In this document: in pieces, positions 5,494-57,960 of the stretch
Numbering within the stretch: the stretch's first letter is position 1
Layout of the letters: each line of letters begins with the position of its first letter
Notes under the pieces: model-generated
Seen by the model: only the letters and a program-made list of their open reading frames with translations
The model's database searches: none
What the model was told of the DNA's origin: nothing
From: Botryllus schlosseri
Taxonomy: Eukaryota
NCBI GenBank assembly: GCA_051294905.1
Contig: CM119373.1
Coordinates: forward strand, 6,572,001-6,636,000
DNA: 64,000 bases
Direction: 5' to 3'
Translations under genes and position numbers: made by a program

Positions 5494-8400
5494 TCAGGAA
5501 CTATGACGTTTCTTTAGCGGTTCTTCGTCATTTTTTCCGTTCAACGATGTCCCCTTCACTGACTTCTTCATTGATATAATTCGTTCGTTGTATCCGAAGC
5601 TCAACACAGACGGATTATCTGCTCCACGGCCTAGAAATTCAAGGATGCCAAGCTGCAGAAGTTTGGTCGTAGTTAATTGCATCAGCCCCACCGATTGCTC
5701 TCTGCATGCTGAAATGTCGCTCCTGACAGTCTTGCGAAATCCTTGCTAAGCAAACCCATTTATCGTTGTGTGCTGGAGGAGGTACTTAACTAAGTCTATT
5801 ATTGACGGTACCAGCATACAAATACCCTGATAAGTTAGAGAAGCAATGAAATCAGTTTTCTCGGTACAGCACGTGGATTCCTTCCAGGTATGAAAATAAT
5901 TTAAAAATTCGTGTTGCAGCCACGATAAGCGTGGGTCGCTGATGTTTGTGAACGATGCCATAGTCGGGTTCTTCTGGCTCGTTTTCCGGAAGTACTATCA
6001 CAGATGTCAAAAAAATCATTCCACATCTTTGCGTACTCGGACGTTGCTACGAAATCAGCTCTTTCCAGCTGTCTTGCAACAGATATTGAGAGAACCTGCT
6101 CAATGAAATTGAGCTCTTTCTCATTTCTGAGTTATTAATAGAGTGCTACGATTGTAATTATAAGATAACTCATACCTGTGCTGCATATTTCACTGACATT
6201 TTCGAGCGAGAATTTAAATAGATATGGGAATGCTAGACTTTGGAAGGCTGATGGAGATCACTGGACCACAAGTCTTTGTAGATAACTTCCATGAGTTTCC
6301 ACAGGATTTGCCCCAGTGTATTTTTAGCGTGGAATTTCGCGCAGTCTGAAGAATATAACCAGTATTTAAATATATAGGTTGAAGTGAAACATTCCGTGAG
6401 AATATTTACCTTAATTAAATGAGGAGGATCTGGCCATAAATAGATGAAACTATCCTGGCTGAACGGGTTTAGTACCTTATAATCGGTATCGAAGCCGTCA
6501 ATCAGGTTGGAGAAGAATTTCCGATTATTGGCAGCACCATCCGCGCATACGCATATGAGTTTGAAGCCGAATCTTTCTACAAGGAAGAGCATATCCCAAA
6601 ATACAGAGGTCAAATGATAATACTTCGCTGTTGCTGCATAAATATTAAATATTCTTTAAACACAGTGTTTTATGTCCTTTGTCGAATTACCAGTTTTAAG
6701 CGAAACATCACCTCTGAGGAAAAATGGTAGCATTTGGGAAAGTGAGCCACAAATACTTTTTATATACACTCCAAGAACATGTGTTGCCATCGTATCATCG
6801 CTTGCAAAGGTGTCTCCATAGTTGACGAATCCGATAAGTTTTCCGGAGGTACCATCATAAACAATCCTTTATTAATTTGCATTTCGTCAAAAGTAATACA
6901 TATGTATTTCTCTTCATTCGGCAATGACGACGAGAGATTTTCAAGTTTTTTTTCAATATCATCTCCAAACCTGATTTCAGGCTTTTCTGCGTACCTGGGA
7001 TAGAACAACTTTGCAAAATTAATAAATCACTATATAATTGATAGCCTTTTTGATAAAGGCACCTGAAATCTTGCAGCGTGGACTTGGACGGCAGACGTAA
7101 AACACCACGGAATTCTTCATAGGCAGCCGGAGATTTCGAATCGATGGATAGGTATAATCTAAATCAAATGTTTTCTGTAGCCGTATAATACTCTGTCAGT
7201 AACCTAATAATATCCGGGTGATAGCGTTCTCCTTTTTCTTTAACACTCAATAATTTCAGCTGTTCCTGCCAAAACAACTGCTGGTAGGGCGTGAGCTCAT
7301 GGTCTACAGTAGAGCTGGGCAACATACGGCCCGCGGGCAGCTTCCCGTCTTACATGATAATGTTGCCCGCGGCTGATTAGTCTGCCGAGATTCCCCACTA
7401 CTTGCTTACTACGTCAACTTTTAGTGACTGTATGTTAATATATTCGAGTGTGCGCAGTTAATATATTCGAGTGTGCGCAGTGTGCGAGAGTGGAGCTTAC
7501 GGGTAAGTTCGTCGAAGAGAGATAGATGACTTGCATTGTCAGCATTTACAATGTACTTAACCCCAATGTTGTTTGTGCCAATCATGGTGTTTGTCGACTG
7601 CAATGGTCATTTACACCAGGCAGCTATTTCTTATTTTTGATTCCGTAACCGCTAACTGGTAGCACTGCACAGTGCACACGTACAGGCTTTTGTGAGACAT
7701 CACTTGATAGTTATGCCAATGAGATGGCGAGGAGGAGCCTAGATAAACCTCCAACACTTGGGTAGCAATTCCAGAGTCGGACTCGAACACACAACACATT
7801 GGGTTTTGTAGCCGTGGATTATACCACTGCACTATCTTGCCACCTACTCAACCCTAATAGTTTGGTAAATTTGGGGTACTGGGCTTATCGAACAACTTAA
7901 AATCTTAATTTTTAAGGATTGCACATTGTGTTGATTGATCAGAGAGAAGCAGACATGGCGGTGCATGTATGACAGTGGTTCTCAAGCTGGGGGCGTGAAA
8001 GCATCCGAAGGGGGCGCGAAGTCACAGTTAACTGAAAAATTTGAAAAAATTTTCGCGCATCGCGCAATTTACCTTAAGCTCATGGTGTTTACTCTATCTT
8101 TTGTCCGAATTTCATATTTGAGAGCTCATGGTGTTTATACTCAATCTTTTGTCTGAATTTCATATTTGAGAATTCTTTCATCAATAGCCACAACCTTTAA
8201 TGCCATCAAACTATCCGTTGGGATGGCTAGTATTCTGATTCACGATAAGGGGGGCGTGGAATTTTCCACTATCAAAAAGGGGGGCGTGTTCAAAAAAGTT
8301 TGAGAACCACATAACAATGCTATTCTCAAATCCACATTCTTTTCGTCATTATCGCCGAGAAATCACTTTGAAATAACATTGCTTCGTTAAAATACTATCA

Positions 8401-9560
8401 TTAAATACGATTTATTCCATGTATAATGTATATGTGAATAAATGGGCAAATAATGTATTATCGATTCAGCAATCCGGCCCGCCAAGTACTTGACTTTCCT
8501 ATATCCGGCCTGCCGACTGGAAAAGTTGCCCGCCGCTGGTCTACAGATATTTGTGTCATGCAATTTTGTATTGCTGCGGCGAAATCCGGCTGGACTTAAG
8601 CAGACTTGTTTGCGATCTTTTTCTTGATCAGCGTAAGCTCTTTTTCCTTCACACTTTTTCTTCGCGTATACAAAAATAAATAGCCTACATATTCATAAAA
8701 CATCAAAAATTCCAACCTACTCTTATTTCTGATGCAACAGGGTTGCCATTAGTCGTGATTCAGAGCATCGACTTATAGGTGCTTTGTCAGCTAGAACTTC
8801 GGTTTCTCATTTCCATATTACGCTTCTTTCTTTGCTCGACATTCTTACATTGTACGCACGCATTGCTGTGCGGATCGCGTAATATCGTCGTACACTTATC
8901 TGAAAGCCTGGCCGAGCAAGTCACGACTTTGTCGGCCTCATTCAAAATATCGAACACAGTGCTCTCCCGCAAGCTCGAGTTAGTAGACACGAACTCGCCA
9001 TCACCAAATTCGTATCTTACAGACAAGCCCTCCTGTACGTCTAAAACAATTCCATTTTTTTGGTTTCTGAATTGAAACGCTAAATAAATTCGCTTTAAAC
9101 CAGTCGGGTTGTTGTAGCTTCTAAAATCCTTTTTGCACGCCATCTAAACTTTTATATCTTGATGGCACTGGTAATTCATGTTTTACTATTGGCTTTCTCG
9201 GGGGAGGTGGAGTAGTGTCGTGCGATTTTTCTGGCAAATTAATTGACGGCAAGGCGCCTGGTTTTAACTCTTTTCTTGTGATTTACGTAATGGAAATCTG
9301 TTTCTGCGAAATGACGTCCACAAATGCCAGCTTGATCCCTTTTTCCTAATTCCGTTACGACCGACTTCTCTCGATATTTACAACAAAAATGAAACAATAA
9401 ATGAAACAATAAAGTATGCCATTCCTTGTTTCGTCCAGGGTGCAGAACTACAGTCAGGATGTAAATACCAGCCGATTCTTTGCTCGATTTGCCGAGTCTC
9501 CTAGTATTACACCCGGGTAATATGCAGTGACTAGGCGCCATGGTTATACGATATAATCCA
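5494..9560 (-). mobile_element. Degenerate P-element-like (THAP + P transposase) DNA transposon
   Basis: THAP-like 'MAPSHCILPGC...ICGRHF' (~9250-9545); 'SPAAYEEFRGVLRLPSKSTL' (~7080-7140); 'CITFDEMQI', 'CADGAANNRKF', 'WPDPPHLIK' (D-x2-H); 'RISQDCQERHFSMQRAIGG' (~5690-5750). Many frameshifts; interrupted by a hAT MITE. Confidence 0.8.
7310..8538. mobile_element. Non-autonomous hAT element inserted in the P-like transposase
   Basis: Imperfect TIRs tagagctgggcaac / gttgcccgccgctg. 8-bp TSD gtctacag at 7302-7309 and 8539-8546. Contains a degenerate nested cagtggttctcaa...ttgagaaccac element (~7973-8310). Confidence 0.85.
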
Positions 9561-16011: not shown

Positions 16012-16660
16012 GTACGGGTGCCTTAGTGTTGTCCGATAATCCTTTATCCTAAAGTAGCGGTACATTTTTAACGGATTGAATCCTCTTTCAGAGTCCCACG
16101 GCCAAACTCATTTTCTTTTTTTTGTTCTTGAACGCGCTCGACGTTGATCCCGTTTCGACTGGTAATGCGAAACATTCTTCACGGATACCACTTTCTCTGA
16201 AGTGACCGTCACCATATGTGTCCAGCTGTCCACCCACTCGTGATCGATCTGGTTAGGCGCCGTTGTGGTTCCCGTTTCTTTTTTCGTGCAAAACTTTGCG
16301 ACCTCATTGATTTTTATTCTGTACTCTGCTGTTTCCGTTCCCTTCCAGAGAAACCCTGCCACTGTATGAACTCCCGTGCCCCCAGCGCCGCCTCCGGAGC
16401 TCCGCACAGTTGGCTCGCTCCCAGCAAAGCCCCCCATCTTGCCAATCGTGCTGTCCGCCGCCATGGTGACCCTTTTTCCTTCGCTATCCGGTGTAATTCT
16501 TTTTGGCTCGGTCTCTCCGGTCTCTGGTGTAGCCCCTTGTTTAGTAGGCCTCCCGCGCTTTCGTTCGCCACTTGTTCCAGTTCTGGACTGTGAAACGCTA
16601 CTGTCGCTAGGAATATTCTCTCCTCGCCACTTGTTCCTGCTCCTTCAGTTGCTTCTTTTT
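16012..16660 (-). mobile_element. Virus-like element copy A, proximal part (Gly-rich start of the capsid-like domain and overprinted ORF)
   Basis: 'MAADSTIGKMGGFAGSEPTVRSSGGGAGGTGVHTVAGFLWKGTETAEYRIKINEV' is homologous to copy B 23229 onward. Frameshift from a short tggaca duplication near 16225. Upstream boundary approximate. Confidence 0.9.
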
Positions 16661-16814: not shown

Positions 16815-19800
16815 AACATACACATATATATACACATACACATATTACAACATATATACACATACATGCGCACATATCCATACTTACATACATATAATGG
16901 CCTCTTTATGGTTTCATGGGCCCGCTACATACTCATATGCACGGAGGGGAGGATGCTGCGCATTTACGCTAGTACAGTCAGGAGTCTATCTAAAATCATT
17001 GGAAGTTGGCCTTTTAGGCGGAGTCTTGATCTCGCCGTGTTCATGACACGTTTGGTTGTGGAGTTTATGTACACGGTTATGTCGCTTTCCATTTCATTTT
17101 CCACTTCCAATATAATTCGGTTTTGTATTACTGTTTCTTTGTATATGGTCACGAGGAGTTTCGTTGCGAGATTGTTCTTGTCCCAGTTCTTTTCTTCAAG
17201 GAGTGTTCCGCTTAGGGATGCCCTAGCTCCCGTCGCTTGTCTCAGGGATGTTTCTAGTCGATCAAGTATCTGACGAGCAATTGGGCATGTATACAGGATG
17301 TGGTCTAGTGTCTCTTTTTTACATCCACATTGTCTGCATGATGTTATAGCAGGTTTTCCAGTTTTATGTCCTAGTATAGTCTTTTGTTTTCTCTTCCAGC
17401 CGAATAGGTATCCGTCGCAGGCGATACGGTATGTTGTAACTCTTTCTTTGTTTTTGATCAGGCCGGATACGTATCTGTTTTCATTGCAAGTGATTTCCAA
17501 TTGATTTCATTGTTTCCTTGTTGGTCTGTATTCCCATGTATATTTTTGATTTCATTGTATATGTCTTTTAGTGACGCTGTTTGCCAGTCTTCTTGTTCCC
17601 AATTTAGCTTTTCGGCAATGCTTATATTCATTTTCCATTGGTTTGATAGAAGTGTGCGGTGTGGCATGCTATTTGTAAAGAGTGGGTCGTTCTATTTCCT
17701 GATCGTGGGCCCAAGCTCGTATAGGGCGTGGAAGTGCCTATACTCCGTTGGATGTTCTATTCTCGACAGTTTTGATATTTTTTCCAGCTCACATGCCTTG
17801 GCCTGGCTTTGGGGGTGTAGGATGTTCATTCCGCCTTCTTCTGGTTTGTTGTTCTTCTGATTATCTCTATTTTTTCAGGATGCCAAAGATATCTGAAAAT
17901 CGTTCTCATGAGGCGTGCTGTAAATTCTGGCGTGGGAGGTATGGTCCTTGCATGTAGGGTTATAATTGAGGAAGCGAAGGAGTTTATTACGTTCTTTTTT
18001 CCCATCCACGTGAGCTGACGGTGGGAGTTGCTCATTAGCTTTCCTTCGATTTTCTTTATGACGCCCTCCCATGTTTCGTTTACCTGATCGTGTCCAAAGT
18101 GCTGTCCTAGTATCTTGATGCTTTTAACGAAGTTTCCTTTGAATTTTTGTTCTCTTATGTGGTCTAACGCAGGGGTCGCCAACTCAAAATAGGTCGCGGG
18201 CCACTTTTCCAAATTCCTGGAGGCCGCGGGCCGCATGACATCAATATCGATATAAAAGTAGGCAACGCAGTTCAACAACCACGTCTGATAACTCTACGGT
18301 ATTACAACGCTGTGCTTTCTAACATAGGCGACGGTTATAGTCACCACAGAAAAACTAATATTTTATTGAACAAACACAAATACAACAAAAAGTATCATGA
18401 TCATCAATGTCATTATATTTTGGACTATGAGCTGTACACGATACCTGACAATGACAACACTCTTTAGCCGCTAAAACAGGGGTGGCCAACATTTTTGTAA
18501 TTCACGGCCGCATTTCGCGTACTCATGTAGCCTGCGGCCGCATACCGGTGGTTAGTCGTGATACACTAGCTGGGGCCAAATACCCACGTTACCATGTCCA
18601 TGTCCATTGCCGGTACACTCCGAACTAATCTATATGCACATATCGGCTTACTATGCGCACCAAATCGTTAGTAGTTATGTTGTAAAGAGCCACAGAGAAC
18701 CAATCTGTAGTCGCGCGAAGCGCGAAAAATTTTTCATGTTCATGAGTGAATTTCGTCAATAAATATTAGTATAGTTTCACATATTACTATAAAATATTTA
18801 TCCTTTATCGGCCAATGTGTTCAGATCCCCAGATACAGCTGATATGCAGGGGGTATCTGCGAAAACTTAGGGTTGTTATTACAAGTGTCGACAGCCGCAT
18901 AATTTTCCTTCTACTGCTGCAGATTGGCCACCCATGGATTGAAGAATCAATATTGGGGTTAGCTATACACGGTAGGCCTACTTGCTAGACAACTATCTCC
19001 TCGTAAAGCATGGTTTTTGGAGCGCCCGAAGTCGTTTTGCAGGCGTCTCGGTCTTGGCAGTGGTGGGCCATTGCACGTCAAGGCAATATGTCCATTCGTA
19101 CCAGCAAATTCTTCATCCATGGAATGATATTACCATGCCGAAGCCGTATCAACTAGTGAGTAATAGTGATAGTGGGCACATAGAATGGCTCACTTTGAAA
19201 AACAACAACATTATGTTTCAACTGCAATCAATTTTAGCGTTTCAACATGATTTACTAAGCGTTTTTCTGCATTTTTTTCAAATCAGGTCGCGGGCCGCAA
19301 AATAGGACCTCGCGGGCCGCATGCGGCCCGCGGGCCGCGTGTTGGAGACCCCTGGTCTAACGTGTTCCCGATGCACAGGATCTGAGTTTTTTCTTTGTTT
19401 ATTTTTTGCCCTGTGGCTTTTTCGAGGTATTCAAATTCTTCGTACGCTCTCTCGATCGACTCCAGCTTTGTCGTGATGATAGTGAGGTCATCGGCGTATT
19501 GCTGTGTCTTCATATTGTGTTTGCCAATTTTACATCCTGTTATGTTTTTGTTCCCCAAAATTTTGATCATCAGGGGTTCCGCTGTCAGGGTGTAGAGATA
19601 CATCGATAGTGGACATCCTTGTCTCAGCCCTCTTTGGATGGGGATTTTGTCTGTGATGAATCCGTTTATCCAGATGCAGCTTGTGGCATTGTCATATAGT
19701 TTTTTAATCAATTTTATTGTTTTGGTTCCGAAATTGAATTTTTCCAATATTTGGAATATTTTTCTAATATTAGGAATATATATGGGTGAGGGACACGGTC

Positions 19801-22029
19801 AAAGGCCTTTTCCTGGTCAAAGTTTGCTATGATGATTGGCTGTTTCTTTTCTTTCTGGTATTCCATTACCGATTTTATATTCCGTAGTAGATCTGACATT
19901 TGCTTCGATGGGACAGCGCATTTTTGTTGGGGGGATATTAGATGGTCAATATTTTCTTTCATTCTGTTCGTTACGATTTTCATCATGATCTTATAGTCGA
20001 CATTTGTCAGGGAGATAGGTCTCCAATTCTTCAGCATCTCGGGATCTCCCTTTTTGAATATGAGGTTCACTGTTGAATCCGTCCATGTATTGGGCATGCT
20101 GTTTAGGAGTAGAGCGTTGTTGTATAGTTGGACTAATTCATCCTTAATAAGGTAGTAGAAGGTAGAGTAGAACTCTGACGATAGGCCGTCTGGCCCGGGG
20201 GACTTAAGTCTTTTTTTGTTGCTCGATTGCATATTTTATTTCCTCTTCTAGGATTGGCAGGTCTTGTTGCTCATGCTGTTCTTTACTTAGGAGTTCCACT
20301 AGGTTTTTTTGCATCTTGGCATTTGTGTTTTCATTCATTTGCCAAAGTTCTTGGTAGAAGGAGTAGACTTCTTGTATTATTTCTTCTTTGTTTTCTGTTA
20401 TGGTCCCGGATCGTTTTTGTACTCGGGCGATTGATTTCCGTTGTTGCTTTGTTTTTAGTTTTTCAAAGAATTCACGGTTTGGCTTCTCGTCCTCTTCTAG
20501 CTCTTCCCTGTATAGCAGTTTCATTTGGTGGTGTAGTTTGTCTTTTTCCATTTTCTTCAGGTTTTTTAGGATGGTTTTTCTCTCATTTGAGGGCAGGTTC
20601 TTTGATGCGAGTTGTTGATGGAGTGTGTTCTCTTTTTCTTTTTGTTTTCGTTTTTCCTCTATCCCGAAAGAGATGGCAGTTTTTTTATTTATTTTTGTTT
20701 TAAAATCATCCCACCACTGTGCGTGGTTGGGGTATTCTACTTTCCTCAGTGCGGCTTCTTCATATTTTGATTCCAGTATTTTCCTGAATTGTTTCTTAGC
20801 ATAGTGGGTTGTATTATTTTTCCAGTTGCCGCCACCCCATTTCTCCGGGTCTTTTGGCTTTACGATGATTCTGAGGTAGTAGTTGTGGTCTGATATTCCG
20901 TTTATATGATGCTTGACTGATGTCCTCGAGCGGGCTATTTCTTGAGTGGTATAGACCCTATCTATTCTCCTTGAGTTGAGATTGTTTGCATTTGTATACA
21001 ATCTTGTAAATGGATAGTGCCATCTGTATAGGTCTATGATGTTTTTCTGCATTGTATATTCCTTCCAGATTTTTGCTGCTTCAGATAGTTTGAAGGCGTG
21101 ATGTTTTTCGCTATCTTCTTTGGCCGTAATCATATTAAAGTCCCCCGCTATAATCATATTTCCATGGTACAGTTGAAGGTTATGCGTTACTTCCTTGTAG
21201 GAGGTCTTTTTTCTTTGTTATTGGTTGGCGCATATATATTTACTATGGTTAGTCTGACCTCGTTGTTGGCGCTGAGGCTTAGGGTCTGGACCCTGTCTGG
21301 CACAATGATTTGGTGGTCAAGGGTATAGTCTCTCACTTTTTCTTTTTTTATAAGAATGGTGGTTCCCTTGTAGTAGTGTTTGTCTCCGGCCTGGTGTGGT
21401 TCTGAATTGAAGTTTTTGTAGTATGGGAGATCGTTATTATTAGCCCATAGTCTAAATTTCCTTTCATGTAGGCGGTGGACTTCTTGGACGCAGTATAAGT
21501 CCGCTTTTGAGCTCGTCACGAAGTGTCTGAATTCGTCCCAGCGTCTCTGTATACCATTTACATTTATGGAGATTAGGTTACATCCAAGAACTCCCGTTTG
21601 TTGATTTGTTTCTTCTGGAGGTTGGGTAGGGGTTTGGCCTTCCATTTCAAGGTAAAAAAGGGGTTTGCGTTGCTTTCTTCTTTTATTTCGTATGTTTTGA
21701 TTTTTTTCTCATCTATTTTTTTGTATTTTTTTTTTTTGTCATTTTTTCCTTCCTCGGGGCTGCTGTGGTAGGCTCTCTTTGGCCTTGGGGTATTTTTGTT
21801 TTTTTTTTTGTTCTAATGGGATGGGGTTGCAATCCAGATGCTTGAAAATCTCGACTTGGAGGGGTTCCGATTCCGTTTTATGTACACTTGATACTCTTTT
21901 CCCTCTATTTCTGTTTCTTGGGGGGATTTTGGGGGGTTCCGAGGAGTCAGATGGTTCAGGATCATGCATTTTTGAGGGGGTTTTGTTTTCTGCTGAGCCC
22001 TCTGGGTTTAATTAAGTCTTCCTGATTGG
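16815..22029 (-). mobile_element. L1/Tx1-clade LINE, 5'-truncated within ORF1, ORF2 frameshifted
   Basis: APE endonuclease 'LISINVNGI...YCVQEVH', 'IIAGDFN', 'RRIDRVY'; RT 'KSPGPDGL', 'NWRPISLTNVDYK', 'DQEKAFDRV', 'GLRQGCPLS', 'QYADD'; C-terminal 'CRQCGCKKETLDHILYTC'; (TATG)-like 3' tail at ~16815-16895. Confidence 0.95.
18170..19354. mobile_element. Non-autonomous hAT element inserted in LINE ORF2
   Basis: TIRs caggggtcgccaac / gttggagacccctg. 8-bp TSD gtctaacg at 18162-18169 and 19355-19362. LINE frame (GNTLD|HIREQ) rejoins on removal. Confidence 0.95.
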
Positions 22030-24290
22030 AAGGATGGAGATCGAGAGGGGCAAAATTAAGAGCGGAGGCGGAGGCAGCAAGAATAGAAAGAGAGAAAGGA
22101 TGGACACACGCATTCGCAACAGCGAGAAGGAGAGAATACGATGCAATACATACACCAGTGAGGGATCATCTTGGAATACCAGGAATGCAACATTTCCTGG
22201 AAGCATTGGGATTAATAGGCGAAACGAACATAGATAATGTAAAAGAAGCAACATACAAATGGGCAAAGTCAAAAATCGAAGAACTGAAAACAGCACTGGG
22301 AGAAGACACAATGGTGGGACAACTAGTGGACGAAATGTTTGTAGTGGATAGTACAGGACAGTCCGACTGGCATGACCTAGAAAATTACAGACAATCAATC
22401 ATGGACATAGTAAATCCAGAAAGATCAGCAGAAGAAAGAAACGAACTAAATCAAGAAGAGTTAGGAGAAGGAGTAACAGAAACGAATAAATATGGGACAG
22501 GAATAACAGAAGAGATCGAGAATGAAGAAGAATACATATACAGTGATGAATCAGATACAGAATTAGACCAAGAAGAGCTGGGAGCGGGAGTAACTGAAAA
22601 TGACCCAGAGGGAATAACAGATGAGATAGAAGAAAGAGAAATAGAAGAATTCGAAGAATACTGTGACATGAGATTATCGGAAGTGGAAAGTGAGAATAGA
22701 TATGCACAGCAGTGGGCGCAATACGAAACGGCAGTAGAGGAAGCATTCAACAGATTTCAACAAAGACGTCATGAACAAAGGGGAACACCAATAATGCAAT
22801 GGCAAATACCGGGCACGAGAAGGAGATGGGAAGGGTTAGGAAGAGCATTGAGAGTGGCGATACCTAGGAAACGTAATAGAAGGGGGTGGATAAAGGACAG
22901 ACCAGGGTATTGGATGAGAAAAGACGGGAAAATAGAAAAAAGAAAAAGGCGACTGCCTCTAGAATGTATAAATATCGCGAACGAGCGGAGAGCTGCCAAA
23001 AGAGCGAGAGATGCAGCAGGAGAAGGAGCAACAACAGAAGGAGAGCCAACAGAAAAAGCCGGAAGAGTTGAGAGCAGCGTACCTAGCGACACTGGTACTA
23101 CACAGCCCAGTACTGGAGGAAATAGCGAACGAAAGCGCGGGCGGGATTCTGAGTCAGAACGTGGGGAAGAGACCGGAGAGACTATCCCAAAAAGAGTTAC
23201 ACAAGAGAGCAAAGAAAGAAGGGTCGGAATGGAGGCGGACAGCTCGGCTAGCAAAATGGGGGTTGCTTTTGGGGGCGAGCCAAGTGTTAGGAGCTCCGGA
23301 GGTAGCGGAGGCGGCGCTGGTGGGAGCGGTGGCGCTGGGGGCACAGGAGTGCATACGGTGGCGGGATTCTTGTGGAAGGGAACAGAAACCGCCGAATATA
23401 GAATAAAGATAAATGAAGTGGTGAAATTTAAAACAAAAAAAGAAATAGGAACAACTGCAGCGGGAAATCAGATCGACCACACATGGGTGGACACGTATGG
23501 AGACGGACATTTTAGGGAGAGCGGAATAAGAAAAGAATGTTTCGCACTACCAGCAGAAACGGGAAGCACAGCAAGTGCGTTCAAAAATAAAAAGAGAAAA
23601 AGGGTTTGGCCATGGGATACCGCGAGGGGATTCAATCCACTGAAGATGTATAGGTACTTCAGGATAAAGGATTACCGAACAACATTAATGCATCCATATG
23701 CCTTCACACCAAGACCGAAAAAAATGACAACGTCATATGTATACAACGAAGAAGGGCATCTACAAAGCTCAGTGACCAATACAGACGGAGAATTTACAGG
23801 AAATAATGGGCCACCAATGATGTGGCTAAATGAATGGACGGATAAGGACAAGTCAACGCCATTGACAGGATGTACAAAGGACACTGTAATAGAAACATAC
23901 TTACCTGTAGAGAGTACAAACGACACAATTGCAGCGACAGAAGAACCAGAATTATTCATACTGGAGCAAGAAGGTGGAACAAAAAAAGCATTTGGATACG
24001 GGTCATGCTCTAGAAAACATGAAATGAAACTAGAGAAATCAATCTCGGTAGTGGACAGTTCAGAAGACGCAAATCAACTACTTCAGGACAGCGAAGGAAG
24101 CCCGTGGATGCATGTTACAGACTGGCCAAAGTGGAGAAGCCAAAACTATTACAGCGGACTAAGCGTGTGTACTCAAACATGGCCGAATTGGACAGGACTA
24201 TCAACCATGACGGTCGACATACCAAGATCGCGCGAAATAACTGTAGAGTTTAAAACTCTAGCTAGCGCGGAATCGCATGGTGTCGCATAA
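22030..24290 (+). CDS. Distal ~753 codons of the 905-aa large ORF; C-terminal 353 aa (from ATG 23229) is a probable single jelly-roll capsid domain
   Basis: Uninterrupted frame. Acidic tract, then Arg/Lys-rich tract and RKRGR, then a Gly-rich stretch, then a beta-rich region with 'MYRYFRIKDY' and terminal 'ITVEFK', reminiscent of ssDNA-virus capsid strands. Capsid identity is by resemblance only. Confidence 0.6.
23011..23406 (+). CDS. Overprinted 131-aa ORF in an alternative frame of the large ORF
   Basis: Homologous open frame in divergent copy A (16314-16571 and upstream) with a stop at the equivalent position (NIE* vs STE*). Identical in copy C (40957-41352). Confidence 0.65.
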   Translation: MQQEKEQQQKESQQKKPEELRAAYLATLVLHSPVLEEIANESAGGILSQNVGKRPERLSQKELHKRAKKEGSEWRRTARLAKWGLLLGASQVLGAPEVAEAALVGAVALGAQECIRWRDSCGREQKPPNIE

Positions 24291-24332
24291 GGGGAATTCC
24301 CTAATTGTATATATTTATTGCATTGTTACGTT

Positions 24333-24338
24333 AATAAA
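24333..24338 (+). promoter_or_regulatory. Candidate polyadenylation signal of the large ORF
   Basis: AATAAA 43 nt after the stop codon. Not retained in copy A. Confidence 0.45.
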
Positions 24339-24392
24339 GGTTGACCCACTCAGACGAGAAAGTTTTTTTCCTTGGGTGGGCCAGGGCAGGTT

Positions 24393-24449
24393 CAGACTTG
24401 CCCGAGCGGACGTCACAGAGACGAAAACGCGGACTTACTCGAAACGCAA
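24393..24449 (+). promoter_or_regulatory. Conserved non-coding cis-element of the virus-like unit
   Basis: 54/57 nt identical to copy A 11496-11552 (reverse complement). Contains GACGTCA and two GACTT(G/A)C(C/T)CGA repeats. A TATA-like tataataa follows at ~24482. Confidence 0.75.
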
Positions 24450-24502
24450 TTTTATAGTGTCGTTTAAGTAAGGATGCAGACTATAATAAGGCTCATTTGG
24501 AT

Positions 24503-24841
24503 ATGGACGGGTCTGACTTGTATATTGGCGAACCCTGTGGAAGAATTATAAGAGAGATTGTGGATTACGAAAGTAGATATGAAGAGGAATTTAGCTGCCG
24601 ACGAGAGTTCGAATGCATCAAGGACGAGCGTGCCTCAAAGTTACTCAAGCGATTCAAAGAGATTGCGAATAGACGAAGAAGAGAGGTCCGTGAAGGGGGC
24701 AGGAGATGGAGAAAATTCAGAGCGTGGCACGATCGCTACCTTCGGGCGACCCTGACGCGGCCCTATCGGGCCGCAAGGGTCAGGGGTCGCAACGCTCTCT
24801 TAGCCTATTTTGGCTTCGATCGCGTTACTAGCACACCCTAG
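24503..24841 (+). CDS. ~112-aa basic protein of the virus-like unit
   Basis: The first ~30 residues and the start Met are conserved in copy A. Arg-rich C-terminal half. Function unknown. Confidence 0.65.
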   Translation: MDGSDLYIGEPCGRIIREIVDYESRYEEEFSCRREFECIKDERASKLLKRFKEIANRRRREVREGGRRWRKFRAWHDRYLRATLTRPYRAARVRGRNALLAYFGFDRVTSTP

Positions 24842-24916
24842 GGTAAGAAGGTGTCCTTACCCTAGGGTGTGCTAGTTGACCCACCCAAAAAAAAACATTC
24901 CGAGCTGGGTGGGTCA
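24746..24916. repeat. Cluster of three stem-loops (candidate origin or fused termini)
   Basis: GC-rich bulged hairpin 24746-24790; perfect 21-bp stem 24827-24847/24856-24876 with 8-nt loop; 11-bp stem 24877-24887/24906-24916. Confidence 0.9.
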
Positions 24917-24923
24917 GGAAGGA

Positions 24924-24931
24924 TATAAATA
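24924..24931 (+). promoter_or_regulatory. TATA box candidate
   Basis: TATAAATA immediately after the hairpin cluster, 28 nt upstream of ATG 24959 (A at -3). Confidence 0.6.
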
Positions 24932-24958
24932 GAGGCTGAGTGGCGAAAGTGATTCAAA

Positions 24959-25201
24959 ATGAGCACGTACGAGGAGCTGAGCGGATTGGTGAAAGACTGG
25001 AAGCACACGGAACAACTGAAGTGGAGCTATCTAATCAAAGAAGTACTGAACCTGATATTGTTGATAGCGATTGTGGGACTGCTAAGTATAGTTCACTACA
25101 ACGTGACAAGAATTCAAGGAGCGGAAAGACTGAGAAGATTCGCAGACGTAACAGGAGGGCCACCAAGATACGAAGAAACGACAACAACTTTTGAAGCATA
25201 A
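24959..25201 (+). CDS. 80-aa predicted single-pass membrane protein with PPxY motif
   Basis: Hydrophobic 'VLNLILLIAIVGLLSIV' and C-terminal 'PPRY'. Its stop overlaps the next ATG (TAATG, 25199-25203). Present only in copy B. Confidence 0.6.
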   Translation: MSTYEELSGLVKDWKHTEQLKWSYLIKEVLNLILLIAIVGLLSIVHYNVTRIQGAERLRRFADVTGGPPRYEETTTTFEA

Positions 25202-25669
25202 TGACAAAGGCGTTAGCTGTATTGAACAATGTACGGAAGAATGTGAAGAAAATAAATAAACTGAGATCTGCATATACGGAAAATCCAATCTCAAAAGCAG
25301 CAAGAGGGTACCAGAAATTGAAAAAGATAGAGAATGGGGTGGCAAATATTAAAAAAACATACAAAAATCCAATACGAAGAATATACGCAAAATGGGAAAG
25401 AGTGACAGCGAAATTAAATGAGTGGGAACAGGGATACAAAGGAGTGCAAATGGGCATAAGCATTTTCCAATCAGCAACAGGGGCGTTAGTGGAAGATATA
25501 AACAACGGGATTGATTATCCAAGAGCTGTGACAGCAGTGATACAAAGAAGTCTGGAAAATTGGGACAGAGATAAATTAGAAGAAGGATTAAGGATATTAA
25601 AAGTACCAAGAGGAGAAATTGGGAGAATAGGAACGCACTTGCAGAACAACGTGTTCCAAGGATGGAGAT
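25201..25669 (+). CDS. N-terminal ~156 codons of the 905-aa large ORF (continues at 22042 in the circular form)
   Basis: Ends ...NNVFQGWR, and copy C shows ...NNVFQGWRSRGAK contiguous. The ORF-track tail beyond 25669 is flank read-through. Confidence 0.8.
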
Positions 25670-27289
25670 GGACCAAGAATATGGTCAAGCTAGCAATTCG
25701 GCTTTTGAATGGTGTTGTGGAATCAGTATCTTCCAGAGTCCTAACACAAGATGTTCTGGAAGCAGCATTTGGATCTTGGGTAACTTCAGTTGACATTCAT
25801 TAATATTATTCACGAATGTTAAAAGTTAACAGCGGTCTTCGATGAGATACAGCAGGAATCCAGATATTAGCCAAGTCAGTTACTCAGTAAATGCCTTAGG
25901 CCAGCGTTTATGCCAGCGTAAGGCTATAAAGAGAGGGAAAGGTGCCAATACAACATAAGCCTATGTTGATCAAAATTCTTGGACAAAAGTCGGCTAGGAA
26001 CCCATGACCAAGAAAAGATGCAGCAAATGAAGCGAATGTAGTTTCTGGTAGTGTTAGTATGGTAGTTTTTTTCGCCCTGTGGCAAATGCTGCCTATCCGC
26101 ATTCCACATTGAGATTCCCTACCTAAAAAAGGAAAAAAATGCGTTTGTCGAAACCTTGACGTGGTGCATTGGCTGTCTACTAATGTCACTGGCAGAGGTC
26201 TTCCAAGCGAATTCCAGGGTATTTTTGGCAATGACAACGAGTTCCATTCAAGTGCGATTTTGCATACTTACAAGGAGTAAGCTCTGACTATTGTGAACCG
26301 AGATCAAGCAGAACATTGACATTACACAAGGCTCTGGTTCTAGTCATACTCAAGTTTCTGTGGTTATCGGACAGGCACACAAGACTACAAGACTGTTGCG
26401 ATATTATTTGTTATATTCATAGTCGAATTTCTGCAGTTAATATAGGATATATTTTCAATCAAAGCTATTGTGAACTGCATATCGATATAGTTCAAGATCT
26501 TTCCACTTGTTCACTTTGTAGTACTCTTCAGTCGTCCTTTCCATGAATTCATCTCACAATAGCCAATGTACACGAACCAGATATTCTATTTACCTTCTGT
26601 CATTATATTTATATATGTAGCAAACTCGATAAAGGATCAAAGCCACAATATCACATCAATCTCGTGAGAAATGTAACATAGGCTACACGGTAATATTCAC
26701 TAGTCATAACCACTCGCCACCGCTACCTAAATGTTGAACTGTCCAACTAAATCCGACGCAGCTTCAAGAAATACATGACGAATCGCCTTGAACGCCATAG
26801 AAACAAGCGCTGAGCGATCCTGTTTTGGGTGCAGCCATCTGACCGTGACCATTCTGCCGGCTAACAATGGGAGAACAATCGAGTCGTCACTCCAGTCATA
26901 CTGTATAGTGCAACAATGATGATAGGTAGGCCACACGTATAATATTCACTCGCGACCCCAACTCGCGACAATCTCACTTTCTCACTAAAACGAGAGGGTA
27001 CGTCATCGCGAAATGAGAAAAAATAGATCAAGCATGAGTGCGTCCGGCAGGGGTCGCAATTTACAGCGTACGCTAGCTCGAAAATGAAAATGTGCGATCT
27101 TTCGTAAAGCTTCAGAGTCGCGAACGCTGCGTTTTATACATCTTCAACACATTCGAAAAGATGCTACAGCTACGGCATACGAGATATGTTGGCCGGGCAG
27201 ATGGCACGTTGGGCGTTGAAAGCAGGAATGCGAAGCTTGCATTGCTCTGGGTAGCAGTAAAAAGGAAGCACAGGCGGAGGACTAGGCAC

Positions 27290-28648
27290 ATGTGGGTGCA
27301 TCCAATTCTGCAAAGAAGGGAGATGCTAGGTATGTGTGTTATGATATATGTATGGGAGTATCATACCTTATGGAACATAATATTAAACAGGAGAGTTTCA
27401 TGCTTTGGCGAGGGAACTCAGATTCGAAGGACAGGAATACTTTCGAGATTATTTTGCAATGAATGTGGAGACCTTCGATGAGCTTCTGTCGTTGGTCGGC
27501 CCGCTCATCAGCAAGCAGACCACAGTCATGAGAAAGCTAATCTTTCATTGGGTGGAATCGGCTATCACGCTGAGGTAAATAAGACAATAGAGATGACTAG
27601 GTCCAGTTAATTCTGCAGGATGGTGTCAGGTTGCGGTTAGTTATTGTATGCTGATGCTAGCAAACTACTTGACAAATTGATGAATAGTACCAAATAGTGC
27701 ACCTTATTCAAGGTATTCATCATATTGCTCTGTACATAGGTTTCTTTGCACTGGTGATTCATATCGTACGATCGCCTTTTCTTATCGATGTGGGAGGTCT
27801 ACAGTAGCAAAGATCGTCCCAGAGACGTGTGCTGCTATTTGGGAGGCCCTAGCACCCGAGTACATGCCAGAGCCAAAAAAAGACCAATGGAAGCGCATTG
27901 CTGAGCGATTTCAAGATAAGTGGAATTATCCTAATTGTGTTGGCAGCATAGATGGCAAGCATGTTTTGATTCAGAAACCGGCAATGTCATAGGGTCCCTA
28001 TTTTTTAATTATAAGAAGACTTTCAGTGTTGTTTTGATGGCAGTTGTGGATGCTGACGAGCGCTTTATTGCTGTTGATGTTGGTCAATATGGTGCAGTGA
28101 ATGATAGTAAATGTTTCAGTAACTCGCTTTTTGGTAACTCGCTTTTTGGTAAACGTCTGTCATCTAACCAATTAGATCTGCCATCAGCGTCTCCTCTACC
28201 TGGGTTTGACAATCCAACTCATTACGTTTTTGTGGCGGATGAAGCCTTTCCTCTAAACACTCACATCATGAGACCATTTCCTGGCGGATCGCTGAGCAGT
28301 GATGAACGTCGTATCTTCAATTACAGATTGTCACGTGCTAGGCTTGTTGTCGAGAATGCATTTGGGATATTATCCTCTCGCTTCTCTTGCTTTCGAAGGC
28401 CAATGGTTGTTATGCCTGTTCATGTAGATGAAGTGGTCAAAGCCTGTACCGTTCTCCATAATTTTCTTATGAGTGACTCAAATTATTATGATATTGCAGT
28501 GGATGGAGCGCGCCCGTCATCGTCTCTACGGCCACTGGACAGAGCGGGTAGAGGAAGTGCTGCGGCAGCCAAAGCCACACGAGAAGAATTTGTGAGATAC
28601 TTCAGTAGTCTTGAGGGGGCTGTTTCTTGGCAGCAAAAGCGCATATAG
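27290..28648 (+). pseudogene. PIF/Harbinger DDE transposase, intron-containing, frameshifted
   Basis: 'WVHPIL', 'NYPNC...DGKHV', 'FFNYKKTFSVVLMAVVDA', 'ADEAFPL', 'FNYRLSRARLVVENAFGIL', 'LHNF'. Confidence 0.92.
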
Positions 28649-39701: not shown

Positions 39702-42700
39702 GTAGCGATCGTGCCACGCTCTGAATTTTCTCCATCTCCTGCCCCCTTCACGGACCTCTCTTCTTCGTCTATTCGCAATCTATTCCAATCAGCAACAGGG
39801 GCGTTAGTGGAAGATATAAACAACGGGATTGATTATCCAAGAGCTGTGACAGCAGTGATACAAAGAAGTCTGGAAAATTGGGACAGAGATAAATTAGAAG
39901 AAGGATTAAGGATATTAAAAGTACCAAGAGGAGAAATTGGGAGAATAGGAACGCACTTGCAGAACAACGTGTTCCAAGGATGGAGATCGAGAGGGGCAAA
40001 ATTAAGAGCGGAGGCGGAGGCAGCAAGAATAGAAAGAGAGAAAGGATGGACACACGCATTCGCAACAGCGAGAAGGAGAGAATACGATGCAATACATACA
40101 CCAGTGAGGGATCATCTTGGAATACCAGGAATGCAACATTTCCTGGAAGCATTGGGATTAATAGGCGAAACGAACATAGATAATGTAAAAGAAGCAACAT
40201 ACAAATGGGCAAAGTCAAAAATCGAAGAACTGAAAACAGCACTGGGAGAAGACACAATGGTGGGACAACTAGTGGACGAAATGTTTGTAGTGGATAGTAC
40301 AGGACAGTCCGACTGGCATGACCTAGAAAATTACAGACAATCAATCATGGACATAGTAAATCCAGAAAGATCAGCAGAAGAAAGAAACGAACTAAATCAA
40401 GAAGAGTTAGGAGAAGGAGTAACAGAAACGAATAAATATGGGACAGGAATAACAGAAGAGATCGAGAATGAAGAAGAATACATATACAGTGATGAATCAG
40501 ATACAGAATTAGACCAAGAAGAGCTGGGAGCGGGAGTAACTGAAAATGACCCAGAGGGAATAACAGATGAGATAGAAGAAAGAGAAATAGAAGAATTCGA
40601 AGAATACTGTGACATGAGATTATCGGAAGTGGAAAGTGAGAATAGATATGCACAGCAGTGGGCGCAATACGAAACGGCAGTAGAGGAAGCATTCAACAGA
40701 TTTCAACAAAGACGTCATGAACAAAGGGGAACACCAATAATGCAATGGCAAATACCGGGCACGAGAAGGAGATGGGAAGGGTTAGGAAGAGCATTGAGAG
40801 TGGCGATACCTAGGAAACGTAATAGAAGGGGGTGGATAAAGGACAGACCAGGGTATTGGATGAGAAAAGACGGGAAAATAGAAAAAAGAAAAAGGCGACT
40901 GCCTCTAGAATGTATAAATATCGCGAACGAGCGGAGAGCTGCCAAAAGAGCGAGAGATGCAGCAGGAGAAGGAGCAACAACAGAAGGAGAGCCAACAGAA
41001 AAAGCCGGAAGAGTTGAGAGCAGCGTACCTAGCGACACTGGTACTACACAGCCCAGTACTGGAGGAAATAGCGAACGAAAGCGCGGGCGGGATTCTGAGT
41101 CAGAACGTGGGGAAGAGACCGGAGAGACTATCCCAAAAAGAGTTACACAAGAGAGCAAAGAAAGAAGGGTCGGAATGGAGGCGGACAGCTCGGCTAGCAA
41201 AATGGGGGTTGCTTTTGGGGGCGAGCCAAGTGTTAGGAGCTCCGGAGGTAGCGGAGGCGGCGCTGGTGGGAGCGGTGGCGCTGGGGGCACAGGAGTGCAT
41301 ACGGTGGCGGGATTCTTGTGGAAGGGAACAGAAACCGCCGAATATAGAATAAAGATAAATGAAGTGGTGAAATTTAAAACAAAAAAAGAAATAGGAACAA
41401 CTGCAGCGGGAAATCAGATCGACCACACATGGGTGGACACGTATGGAGACGGACATTTTAGGGAGAGCGGAATAAGAAAAGAATGTTTCGCACTACCAGC
41501 AGAAACGGGAAGCACAGCAAGTGCGTTCAAAAATAAAAAGAGAAAAAGGGTTTGGCCATGGGATACCGCGAGGGGATTCAATCCACTGAAGATGTATAGG
41601 TACTTCAGGATAAAGGATTACCGAACAACATTAAGGCATCCATATGCCTTCACACCAAGACCGAAAAAAATGACAACGTCATATGTATACAACGAAGAAG
41701 GGCATCTACAAAGCTCAGTGACCAATACAGACGGAGAATTTACAGGAAATAATGGGCCACCAATGATGTGGCTAAATGAATGGAAGGATAAGGACAAGTC
41801 AACGCCATTGACAGGATGTACAAAGGACACTGTAATAGAAACATACTTACCTGTAGAGAGTACAAACGACACAATTGCAGCGACAGAAGAACCAGAATTA
41901 TTCATACTGGAGCAAGAAGGTGGAACAAAAAAAGCATTTGGATACGGGTCATGCTCTAGAAAACATGAAATGAAACTAGAGAAATCAATCTCGGTAGTGG
42001 ACAGTTCAGAAGACGCAAATCAACTACTTCAGGACAGCGAAGGAAGCCCGTGGATGCATGTTACAGACTGGCCAAAGTGGAGAAGCCAAAACTATTACAG
42101 CGGACTAAGCGTGTGTACTCAAACATGGCCGAATTGGACAGGACTATCAACCATGACGGTCGACATACCAAGATCGCGCGAAATAACTGTAGAGTTTAAA
42201 ACTCTAGCTAGCGCGGAATCGCATGGTGTCGCATAAGGGGAATTCCCTAATTGTATATATTTATTGCATTGTTACGTTAATAAAGGTTGACCCACTCAGA
42301 CGAGAAAGTTTTTTTCCTTGGGTGGGCCAGGGCAGGTTCAGACTTGCCCGAGCGGACGTCACAGAGACGAAAACGCGGACTTACTCGAAACGCAATTTTA
42401 TAGTGTCGTTTAAGTAAGGATGCAGACTATAATAAGGCTCATTTGGATATGGACGGGTCTGACTTGTATATTGGCGAACCCTGTGGAAGAATTATAAGAG
42501 AGATTGTGGATTACGAAAGTAGATATGAAGAGGAATTTAGCTGCCGACGAGAGTTCGAATGCATCAAGGACGAGCGTGCCTCAAAGTTACTCAAGCGATT
42601 CAAAGAGATTGCGAATAGACGAAGAAGAGAGGTCCGTGAAGGGGGCAGGAGATGGAGAAAATTCAGAGCGTGGCACGATCGCTACCTTCGGGCGACCCTG

Positions 42701-48787: not shown

Positions 48788-50236
48788 CAATCGTCAGCAA
48801 ATGGAGAATTTCAAAAACATGCATCTAGCTACATTGCATACAACCAATTATGACGTCATAGAAACAAACAACATGAAATACAGGCAAACCGCGAGCGCAG
48901 CTAGTGGACAATTTTTTTATTTTTTATTTTTTTTTATTTATTTATCGGAGATCAGTTACGGCTGCGTCTTCGCGAGATTCCAATATGCGTGATCTAATAA
49001 CGCTGGGGACATGTTGCTTGATGCGTTCCTGCAAGCGCTGAGTTGTTCTTCCCACGTACCGACAATCACAGTGGCACTTGAAATCATAGAATATATTGCT
49101 TTGTTTAAAAGCAGGAACCAATTATGACGTCATAGAAACAAACAACATGAAATACAGGCAAACCGCGAGCGTAGCTAGTGGACAATGTTTTTTATTTTTT
49201 ATTTTTTTATTTATTTATCGGAGATCAGTTACGGCTGCGTCTTCGCGAGAGTCCAATATGCGTGATCTAATAACGCTGGGGACATGTTGCTTGATGCGTT
49301 CCTGCAAGCGCTGAGTTGTTGTTCCCACGTACCGACAATCACAGTGGCACTTGAAATCATAGACTATATTGCTTTGTTGAAAAGCAGGAAGAACATCTTT
49401 GCGCGTTGCAGGAAGCAATTGTTTGGTGGTAAACACAACATTAGTTTTTACGTTATCGTAACAGCGATTTACAGCAGAAATCAATTGCTTTTCAAACCGG
49501 GAAGAGATGGGGCCCAGCCACGGCAAATGTATATATACATTTTCCCCAGACCGTGTGTTCGTGTTTTGTGATTTGTTGGGATTGAAATTACTGATTTTTC
49601 TGTCCACAGAACTCTTGATGATGTGTTCGGGGTAGCCGTTACCGATTAGAATTTTGCGGATATATTCTAGCTCCGCGTTTAATTTTATATCCGAACAAAT
49701 CATCAAGGCTCTGTGCACCAATGTGCCAATCAAATTTAGTTTACGGCGATTCGGGCTAAAAGAATTCCACCGTATGTAATGCCCTGTAAACGTTGGCTTC
49801 CGGTAAACCGAAGTGACAAAACTAATACCCCGTTTTTCCACCAGAACGTCTAAGAATGGTAACGAGTTAGCACGCTCTTTTTCAAATGTGAATTTTAAAG
49901 ACGAGTGTAGAGAATTCAAGTTAACAAAAAAATCATCGAACTCCGTCTCATTTTGACAGATAACGAAGGTGTCGTCGACATAGCGACGGTACATGAATGG
50001 AGGCTTGGTTTCATCTGCGGCGAAAAGTCTGTTTTCATGGAATCCCACAAATATATTGGCTAAAATCGGGCCAAGAGGGCTACCCATAGCTACACCGTCG
50101 GTTTGCATGGAGATGTCCACTAGCTGCGCTCGCGGTTTGCCTGTATTTCATGTTGTTTGTTTCTATGACGTCATAATTGGTTGTATGCAATGTAGCTAGA
50201 TGCATGTTTTTGAAATTCTCCATTTGCTGACGATTG

Positions 50237-56523: not shown

Positions 56524-57960
56524 ATGCCGCGAAATTTTCAAAGAAAGGGTAACAGAGTGAGTTGGGATGAAAATGATATGAAAAAAGAAATAGATGAGGT
56601 TTCCAGAGGATCAAAAATTTAGGCAGCAGCTAGAAGTTTTGACATACCAAGGACAACTCTAATCCGTCACTTGTCTGGAGATTTGACAAAAAAGTCAGCT
56701 TCGAAAAAGGTAGGCAGCTTTTTTTGTTGGGGAGGCTAATTAGTCAAAACTTTTGACTCATATTTTAGAATCTGAGAGACGAGGTTTCCCACTTATTGTT
56801 GAAGACATAAGAAATAGGCTTTTGAATTTGTGGAAGAAAATCATATTCCACATAATTTCTCCACTTGCAAAAAGATGGCTGGATTGGATTGGTGGAGGGG
56901 ATTTCGTGGGCGTCACAAGGACACTCTGACAATCAGAAAGCCACAAGCCTTATCTATTCAAAGGGCCATCCACTTGAACAAGCCAATTGTGGATACGTAT
57001 TTCAAATTAATTCAAGAATTAATGACGAAATATGCGATTCTAGGGAATCCCGGACGGATATATAATGCTGACGAAACAGGACTGAGTTTGGTTCCTGGCG
57101 TGAAAAATGTTGTTCGTTGCAAAGGTTCCCGGTACTGTAGCCAAATAACAAGCGCAGAGCGGGGCCAACTGCAAACTGTGCTAATGGCAGTAAATGCAGC
57201 TGGTCACTACGTTCCACCAATGGTAATATTCAAGGGGAAGAGACCCAATGCTCGCTTGGAACGTGGCATGCCTCCTTCTACAATTTTAAAATACAGTGAA
57301 ACTGGCTACATAAATCGAGATTTGTTTCATGAGTGGATGGTTCATTTGGTGATGCATGAACAAAATGTGTCTGGCAAAACATTGCTGATTCTTGATGACC
57401 ATGGGTCGCATACAAGATGTGGAAAGCTCTTGCGTATGCTGCGGAGTACAATGTGGAAATTGTGAGCCTTCCTTCGCATACCAGTCATTATCTTCAGCCG
57501 CTTGATAAAATCCATTTTAAACCACTCAAAGACTACTACAAGGAGGCTGCTCGAATGCACCTACGAAATAATCCCGGAATGGGTATGTCAAAGCTGGATT
57601 TTCCCGAGTGTTCTGCAAGTCGTACATGAAAGTGGCCACTATGAGGAATGCTGTACAATCTTTTAAATCAACCGGGCTCTTTCCTCTTGAAAAATCAGTA
57701 ATTCCTGACGTCGCATGTGAGCCATCAAAAACAACTGATGTACTGATCCGAAGCTCTGATCATATGCCGACTGAAGACGCATGCTGTAGTTCCACCATTT
57801 CAACAAGCTTCTGTAGAGATGTCAACACCATCTCATCTCGTCCATTGGACCATGAAAATGCAGCAGCGAGTTCGTTTCAGAATATATTACCATTTCCAGT
57901 GTCCACTCAAAAAAGAAAAACAAGAAAGAAGTCAATTGAGACAGGAATTCGAGTATAGGC
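56524..57960 (+). pseudogene. pogo/Tigger-like transposase (HTH-psq, CENP-B HTH, DDE_1), frameshifted
   Basis: 'AAARSFDIPRTTL', 'WWRGFRGRH', 'IYNADETG', 'LLILDDHGSH', 'HTSHYLQPLD'. Candidate left end near 53301. Confidence 0.9.

Follow-up and report, generated by a model that had tools for sequence, protein, structure and literature searches.

What does it mean when a second reading frame stays open across the start of a viral structural gene? The question is raised by a 64,000-nt stretch of the Botryllus schlosseri genome (the window; positions 6,572,001 to 6,636,000 of contig CM119373.1) that holds three copies, A, B and C, of a virus-like element. In copy B, an ORF of 131 aa runs on the forward strand from an ATG at 23011 to a TAA at 23404-6 (23011..23406), in the +1 frame relative to the long structural ORF beneath it (22026-24290). 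From stop to stop, the +1 frame is open from 22972 to 23406, i.e., for 144 codons. A sequence-only reading took this ORF for a real fourth gene, possibly an assembly or egress factor, and likened it to genes overprinted on parvovirus capsid genes. The region 23011-23406 behaves as a real overprinted protein-coding viral gene, a conclusion that we hold with high confidence. The strong evidence for it is the pattern of substitutions across other genomic copies, not the openness of the frame.

The open frame and its copies

How much weight can the openness of the frame bear? Given the main frame, 3.2 stops are expected in the +1 frame of the overlap, and the probability of an open frame is 0.004 locally (20,000 synonymous resamplings) and 0.02 gene-wide (3,000). 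Openness is only moderately unlikely because the main frame is poor in hydrophobic codons, and an opposite-strand frame at 22769-23467 is likewise open, for 232 codons. The +1 frame is open in all three copies in the window, as the sequence-only reading stated, and the peptides that it quoted from copies B and A are both present in this frame. However, copies B and C share 99.93% identity and do not differ anywhere in the overlap (the ORF in copy C, at 40957..41352 on the + strand, is identical), so the window holds two lineages rather than three independent copies. In copy A, the frame (16314..16613 on the − strand) is open for 99 codons up to the same stop, but this copy is truncated at the 5' end, so that the ATG and roughly the first 23 codons of the ORF are missing. 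A 27-nt in-frame indel in the Gly run of the capsid protein (about 23292-23345) distinguishes the copies, and the position of the TAA is shared. Both observations had been offered in support of a gene; both are real, but they carry little weight because the main frame itself demands in-frame indels and the TAA lies within a conserved Ile-Lys pair of the main frame.

Searches of the host's own 495-Mb genome returned 19 matches with the capsid region as query and 13 with the overprinted protein. Six lineages cover the overlap (B/C/L020, A/L021/L023, L025, L026/L027, L028 and L030), with L028 covering its 3' part only. L029 lies outside the overlap, L030 does not extend into the downstream region, and the near-duplicates C, L021 and L023 (the last two in the A group) were not counted as independent. 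All DNA evidence for the ORF comes from this one host species. The ATG is kept in all six copies that span the site, each of which also has a stop 13 codons upstream in the +1 frame, and the TAA occupies the same position in all 10 other copies that reach the end of the ORF. Separately, L025 contains a second, inverted copy of the overlap region.

Selection in the +1 frame

What do the substitutions show? First, copy B and L020, which are 98% identical, have 47 counted differences, 5 in the overlap and 42 outside it. All five in the overlap are at main-frame position 1, and each leaves the +1 protein unchanged while altering the main protein; outside the overlap, position 1 accounts for 8 of the 42 and position 3 for 24 (Fisher p=8.4e-4 for the position-1 share). 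Four of these five overlap differences are also among the differences listed for X5, a contig from another sample. For another contig, X6, five of the six listed differences (of 11) are at main position 1, and one listed difference alters a +1 residue. Second, divergence from copy B at main-frame third positions, where the sequence-only reading proposed to look for suppression across 23011-23406, is about halved in the overlap: it is 0.23-0.27 for A, L025, L026, L027 and L030 and 0.33 for L028 (40 sites), versus 0.48-0.51 downstream and 0.38-0.44 upstream (p 3e-7 to 0.05). Third, because comparisons against B all share B, non-overlapping lineage pairs were pooled, with aligned blocks shorter than 9 nt and gapped sites omitted from the position counts. 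Across 23011-23310, position 1 varies more than position 3 in four of four pairings of such pairs (p 1e-4 to 0.02), one example being 49/146 at position 1 versus 24/147 at position 3. In the acidic disordered stretch upstream, it is position 3 that varies more (p 7e-5 to 0.06), and the same holds downstream. Fourth, amino-acid identity is higher in the +1 frame than in the main and +2 frames in 6 of 6 pairs, and +1 pN/pS among diverged copies is 0.45-0.72 in the overlap versus 0.80-1.79 outside.

Could a promoter or a nucleic-acid structure have conserved the third positions, with the frame open only because the main frame is hydrophobic-poor and no protein being made from it? The 3.2 expected stops, the TATA-like motif that adjoins the ORF and the presence of +1 stops in four decayed copies would all fit. 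Nevertheless, we consider this very unlikely, since a cis-element would not make position 1 outvary position 3 over 300 nt and would not give five of five changes that are silent in the +1 frame, and since the probability of an open frame is itself 0.004-0.02. Relaxed constraint is disfavored along with a cis-element because neither would flip the polarity of the codon positions. A real overprinted gene thus remains the preferred reading.

The stops themselves can be counted. L025, L026, L027 and L030 have one +1 stop each, i.e., 4 in 439 codons, where about 11 (scaled) would be awaited without constraint and 2-3 from decay. In the main frames of the same four copies there are 12 stops in 2209 codons, and beyond the overlap these frames are broken by 2-15 frameshifts. 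As to stop avoidance in further homologues, which the sequence-only reading saw as informative, the four +1 stops are all in copies with a broken main frame. A +1 stop beneath an intact main frame, which that reading regarded as contrary to a gene, was found only locally, in L026 and L027, both of which are broken elsewhere in the main frame. The stop in L026 is the fourth codon, with the main frame open across the overlap; L027 has a sense codon at this site, and its own stop is missing from L026. In the core, differences within this sister pair number 2, 3 and 3 by codon position, an even spread as expected from neutral decay after insertion. An intact relative from outside the host, P0007, which is available as protein only, is compatible with the +1 frame, its sequence allowing a +1 stop at six sites. 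Selection in the +1 frame acted in the virus, and the host copies look decayed. Codon usage correlates at 0.57 for the main frame and 0.43 for the +1 frame, values that lean toward the main frame as the older one and are too close to decide.

How far does the constraint extend? Counts in 60-nt bins and pairwise counts place the constrained core at 23011..23310 on the + strand. Constraint in the +1 frame weakens after ~23310, and the tail at 23311-23406 has the main-frame pattern, which leaves the last ~30 codons free of +1 constraint. Constraint that fades before the stop might suggest that the +1 frame, rather than being a separate gene, is linked to another viral ORF as an exon or through a frameshift, as might the RNA data, since no reads over the ORF were found in four host RNA runs (3-13% of each run read). 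Such an arrangement is highly improbable, however, given that the +1 frame has a stop 13 codons upstream of the ATG in six of six copies, that the ATG is invariant, that an AG just upstream in B is missing from L025, and that the frame ends at the same TAA.

A candidate promoter and the possible role of the product

How would such a gene be expressed? A TATA-like motif at 22965..22973 (+ strand), a candidate internal promoter, lies 46 nt upstream of the +1 ATG. Motif and ATG occur at the same 46-nt spacing in all six copies that span the site, although conservation of the motif is partly imposed because it sits in a conserved main-frame peptide. The likely major capsid protein (23229..24290, + strand) would begin at a conserved Met in strong context, followed by a short leader, the Gly run and a single jelly-roll domain. 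This Met, at 23229, has a purine at −3 and G at +4 in 7 of 7 copies; at the +1 ATG, position +4 is C in 6 of 6. No ATG intervenes between the two starts in five of the six spanning copies, nor in the remaining 196 nt before the capsid Met in copy A; in L027, an additional ATG occurs 9 nt into the motif region. For copy B, the lack of intervening ATGs has a rough Poisson P of 0.009. Leaky scanning on bicistronic messages is an established mechanism, and the arrangement of the two starts resembles the layout of a bicistronic capsid message that would be read in this way. We consider use of the internal promoter together with leaky scanning to be likely, judging from these sequence signals.

What would the product do? 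The overprinted protein starts with a variable stretch rich in Gln, Glu and Lys, and it has a conserved core; 39 positions are invariant among five sequences. For the protein from copy B, there is no Pfam family above the cut-off and no PDB match; the Pfam search gave two weak, unrelated hits among seven rows (best E 0.003). No Pfam or PDB match to the AAP, MAAP, SAT or X families was found either. Its predicted co-translation with the major capsid protein favors a capsid-accessory role like that of AAP, a role that is indicated by titles in the reference list of PMC8310307. From its position and co-expression, we tentatively suggest a soluble capsid-accessory (assembly-helper) protein, an assignment that could easily prove wrong.

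Alternatively, the gene could be real but encode an egress, membrane or host-modulating protein, similar to MAAP or SAT, instead of an assembly helper. The basic, Trp-containing conserved segment near residues 71-83 would suit such a role, and there are membrane-linked examples among the overprinted capsid-region proteins of parvoviruses covered in the accessible part of PMC10891878. On the other hand, the protein has no conserved transmembrane stretch of the SAT/X/ARF1 type in the three lineages compared by KD19: the maximum is 1.54 in B, where the peak stems from the variable overlap with the Gly run, and 0.92 and 0.91 in lineages A and L027. Moreover, its amphipathic moment is not above that of shuffled sequences (39-116 of 300 reach the same value). 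We therefore regard an egress, membrane or host-modulating function as unlikely, and an assembly helper remains the preferred function.

How does this gene compare with known overprinted capsid-gene proteins? MAAP, AAP and X are overprinted on the capsid gene of AAV (in the available portion of PMC8310307), and the portion of PMC10891878 that was available adds cases from B19V, PARV4 and protoparvoviruses and describes the overprinted genes of DNA viruses as under-annotated. Like the ORF here, MAAP is in the +1 frame, and at 131 aa this ORF is of a size with AAP and MAAP, for which lengths of 119 and 204 aa are given (PMC8310307, PMC10891878, in part). A further likeness to AAP and MAAP is the placement of an accessory ORF across the N-terminal extension and the beginning of the major capsid protein. 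AAP and MAAP use CUG starts. Unlike them, the ORF here has an AUG start behind its own candidate TATA motif, and its virus is CRESS-like. SAT, B19V X and PARV4 ARF1 are also +1 frames in a capsid gene that were detected by suppressed synonymous change; they are described as transmembrane proteins, with SAT at the VP2 N-terminus and X and ARF1 over the PLA2 region (PMC10891878, same portion). In contrast, the start of the ORF here precedes the likely major capsid Met by 73 codons, no transmembrane stretch is conserved in its product, and the PLA2 motif pair is absent from the window's long ORF.

Taken as a whole, the best explanation, which we hold to be reasonably probable, would be an endogenized small DNA virus in which a +1 ORF is overprinted on the disordered linker and on the first part of the capsid domain. 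The internal TATA promoter at 22965..22973 would drive a capsid message that starts upstream of 23011; the overprinted ORF would be read from the first, weaker AUG of this message, and leaky scanning would deliver ribosomes to the strong AUG at 23229 for the major capsid protein. The overprinted product would then serve as a soluble assembly helper for the capsid. The observed basis for this explanation consists of selection in the +1 frame, the conserved TATA-like motif, ATG and stop, the near-absence of intervening ATGs and a jelly-roll-like capsid model.

The element and its virus

What kind of virus carried this gene? Copy B, at window 22030-25672, is a Rep-deleted, circularly permuted unit with 12 bp common to both ends, a structure as expected from single-crossover, microhomology insertion of a defective circle. 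The 3' part of its long structural ORF (22030..24290, + strand) encodes an acidic/basic N-terminal extension and then the capsid domain; the 5' part (25201..25672, + strand) is displaced by the permutation. Between them are a chimeric stub at 24503..24841 (+ strand), in which the first 75 codons of an ORF overlapping the start of Rep in L020 are joined to the element's left end, and three strong DNA hairpins at 24743..24916 (z −5.3 and −9.3) in the non-coding end or origin region. A small ORF at 24959..25201 (+ strand) follows, with a TATA-like motif ahead of it at 24924; it encodes 80 aa with one hydrophobic helix (KD19 maximum 2.42), and its stop overlaps the start of the long ORF. The selection pattern upholds the description of the overprinted ORF as a real gene, but counting it as the fourth undercounts the genes, since the 112-codon ORF at 24503 is the chimeric stub of a deleted Rep cassette. 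At the start of copy C (39702-39790), an inverted 89-bp piece of this stub is joined to the capsid gene.

The fullest copy is L020:3405-8760 (G000:C3, about 8,427,400-8,432,760). Its order is hairpins, the small hydrophobic ORF, the long structural ORF (frameshifted in the capsid domain), a 141-codon ORF that overlaps the Rep start, a Rep of 553 codons, a poly(A) signal, hairpins and telomere-like GGTTAG repeats; its ends form an 18-nt inverted repeat. In L027, too, the capsid gene precedes Rep, and a stub of the Rep cassette follows the capsid gene in B, C, A and L021. The unit is ~5.3 kb, with a capsid gene of 850-900 codons and a Rep of 553-658 aa. The ORF at the Rep start creates a second overlap (L020:6759-7184 over 6838-8499); P0009 and L049 have a similar N-terminal piece in frame with Rep, so in some copies it may be an exon or frameshift segment. 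Kinship between this ORF and the overprinted protein was considered and rejected (profile comparison probability 0.7%). In RNA run X17, six reads match the poly(A)-signal/hairpin motif at window 24323-24368 and run on into sequence resembling that before the second copy of the motif in L020, which hints at transcription of the Rep 3' end of some copy.

Relatives are few. The main ORF has no Pfam and no PDB sequence match. A HMMER search of 1.84 billion representative proteins with the capsid domain gave six matches, all fragments; one cluster led to P0007, an intact relative of 851 aa from a 5,347-nt metagenome contig, with which the structural ORF shares 36% identity over 770 columns. A capsid-region search of 5.8 billion sequences gave no match, and no DNA of intact relatives was found in viral_contigs (capsid part, P0007 and Rep), in metagenome_contigs or, by tblastn, in phages. 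An atlas feature search with P0007 gave leads under 0.9 only, to viral capsid clusters. For Rep, the collections searched yielded two matches; its relative P0009 (52% identity) also comes from a 5,347-nt contig; from this equal length, P0007 and P0009 are probably on the same contig. G000 has 44 Rep-like matches, on contigs C1, C3, C5, C7, C10, C14 and C16. A more distant Rep clade (L054-L058) is 34-38% identical and has no capsid match to P0007 in the flanks fetched, and the L040-L044 stretch has no capsid match. The capsid copies are concentrated at C3 6.5-9.1 Mb and C10 2.5-2.9 Mb, as in a TE-rich or piRNA-cluster region.

The capsid domain appears to be a single jelly roll closest to circovirus capsids, although confidence in the model is low. 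With a 22-row alignment, AlphaFold modeled the last 316 residues at a pLDDT of 55.7 and a pTM of 0.55 (pLDDT 31.8 from the single sequence). Foldseek ranked circovirus and other CRESS capsids first (E 3e-5 in PDB and 3e-7 in BFVD). VIA gave Z 9.3 (rmsd 4.4, 179 aligned) and 9.0 (3.6, 163) for circoviruses, 7.8 for an anellovirus and 6.8 for the best listed parvovirus (rmsd 5.9, 182 aligned). Because the model is weak, the fold class is safer than the nearest family. It does agree with the claim that the overprinted frame spans the capsid start, in that the frame beneath leads into a modeled jelly-roll capsid domain.

Is the virus a parvovirus, as the sequence-only reading implied? Its Rep motifs (W[AC]FT, xAHG, YMWK, GxxGxGKT, VKVDD, ITSN and RRF) make a circovirus-like pattern when compared with the CRESS motifs in Table 3 of PMC8307498, the part of that source used. 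RCR motifs I-III, the SF3 Walker A, B and C motifs and the arginine finger are present in four Reps at the motif level, although P0008 and L047 each depart from the pattern once, in Walker A and motif III, respectively; Rep has no Pfam hit and no PDB profile support. Walker B reads DD in 4 of 4 Reps, where the available text of PMC9896142 gives xxxxEE for Parvovirinae. The Parvo_NS1 profile had no Pfam hit in the element, and the control of one such search was likewise without a hit. Parvoviridae have the NS gene on the left and the capsid gene on the right (PMC9896142, same text); in L020 and L027, the structural gene precedes Rep on the same strand. Traits of genome form are mixed: there are hairpins and the 18-nt inverted repeat of L020, yet copy B is a permuted, circle-like insert. 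The NANTATTAC origin is absent from the non-coding region, its only match being inside the capsid gene. Membership thus fails on gene order for Parvoviridae and on origin and size for Circoviridae.

The source works like a small Rep-encoding ssDNA virus, and it looks closer to circoviruses than to parvoviruses, being CRESS-like by its motifs and a weak capsid model. The parvovirus framing is not supported by the capsid model, the CRESS-type Rep motifs and the position of Rep downstream of the structural gene, and for the same reasons the link to AAP and SAT is one of analogy, not homology. CRESS DNA viruses (Cressdnaviricota) resemble the element in Rep motif pattern, and circovirus and unclassified CRESS capsids are nearest to its capsid model; the element differs in its ~5.3-kb size, large Rep, long N-terminal capsid extension with a Gly run, and lack of NANTATTAC in the non-coding region. 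Oomyviridae/Lineavirales capsids are among the fold matches (ranks 27, 37 and 49; E 3e-5 to 7e-5). In the accessible section of PMC12451638, these viruses are parvo-like hybrids, CRESS-type with parvovirus-like traits, with stramenopiles as proposed hosts; the 18-nt inverted repeat at the ends of L020 is a further point of likeness, whereas the element has many germline copies in an animal-size genome. The SwaBA megaparvovirus was rejected as a member of the same lineage: its Rep is also downstream of other cassettes, but its NS1 precedes VP (PMC13426907, in the portion available).

What are the implications? First, the overprinted gene was revealed by selection kept in host-genome fossils, for a virus lineage with almost no relatives in the collections searched. 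Second, if the virus is of CRESS type, the disordered linker before a jelly-roll capsid domain has bred accessory genes independently in two groups of ssDNA viruses, and the idea of a positional hot spot becomes testable. The position and signal of this ORF resemble those of known systems by likeness rather than demonstrated homology; in the open-licence literature, neither a description of this lineage nor an overprinted capsid-gene ORF with an internal promoter in a CRESS virus was found. Third, and more speculatively, the element may represent animal CRESS-type viruses of ~5.3 kb, with the capsid gene ahead of Rep, that form an undescribed lineage at family level and became parvovirus-like independently. 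The convergent design would comprise an N-terminal capsid extension, a Gly run, an internal major capsid start and an overprinted assembly helper, AAP-like and with its own internal promoter, over that start. We consider this possible but rather unlikely; if true, an AAP-like gene would have arisen a second time, independently, and this origin could be read from germline fossils.

The window also holds other mobile elements, identified with Pfam: a decayed LINE with endonuclease and RT at 19283-21708 (− strand), a DDE transposase at 27935-28648 (+ strand; presumably Harbinger-type), an RT with a hint of GIY-YIG at 49215-50147 (− strand; presumably Penelope-type) and a second DDE transposase at 56818-57465 (+ strand), which we take to be pogo-type.
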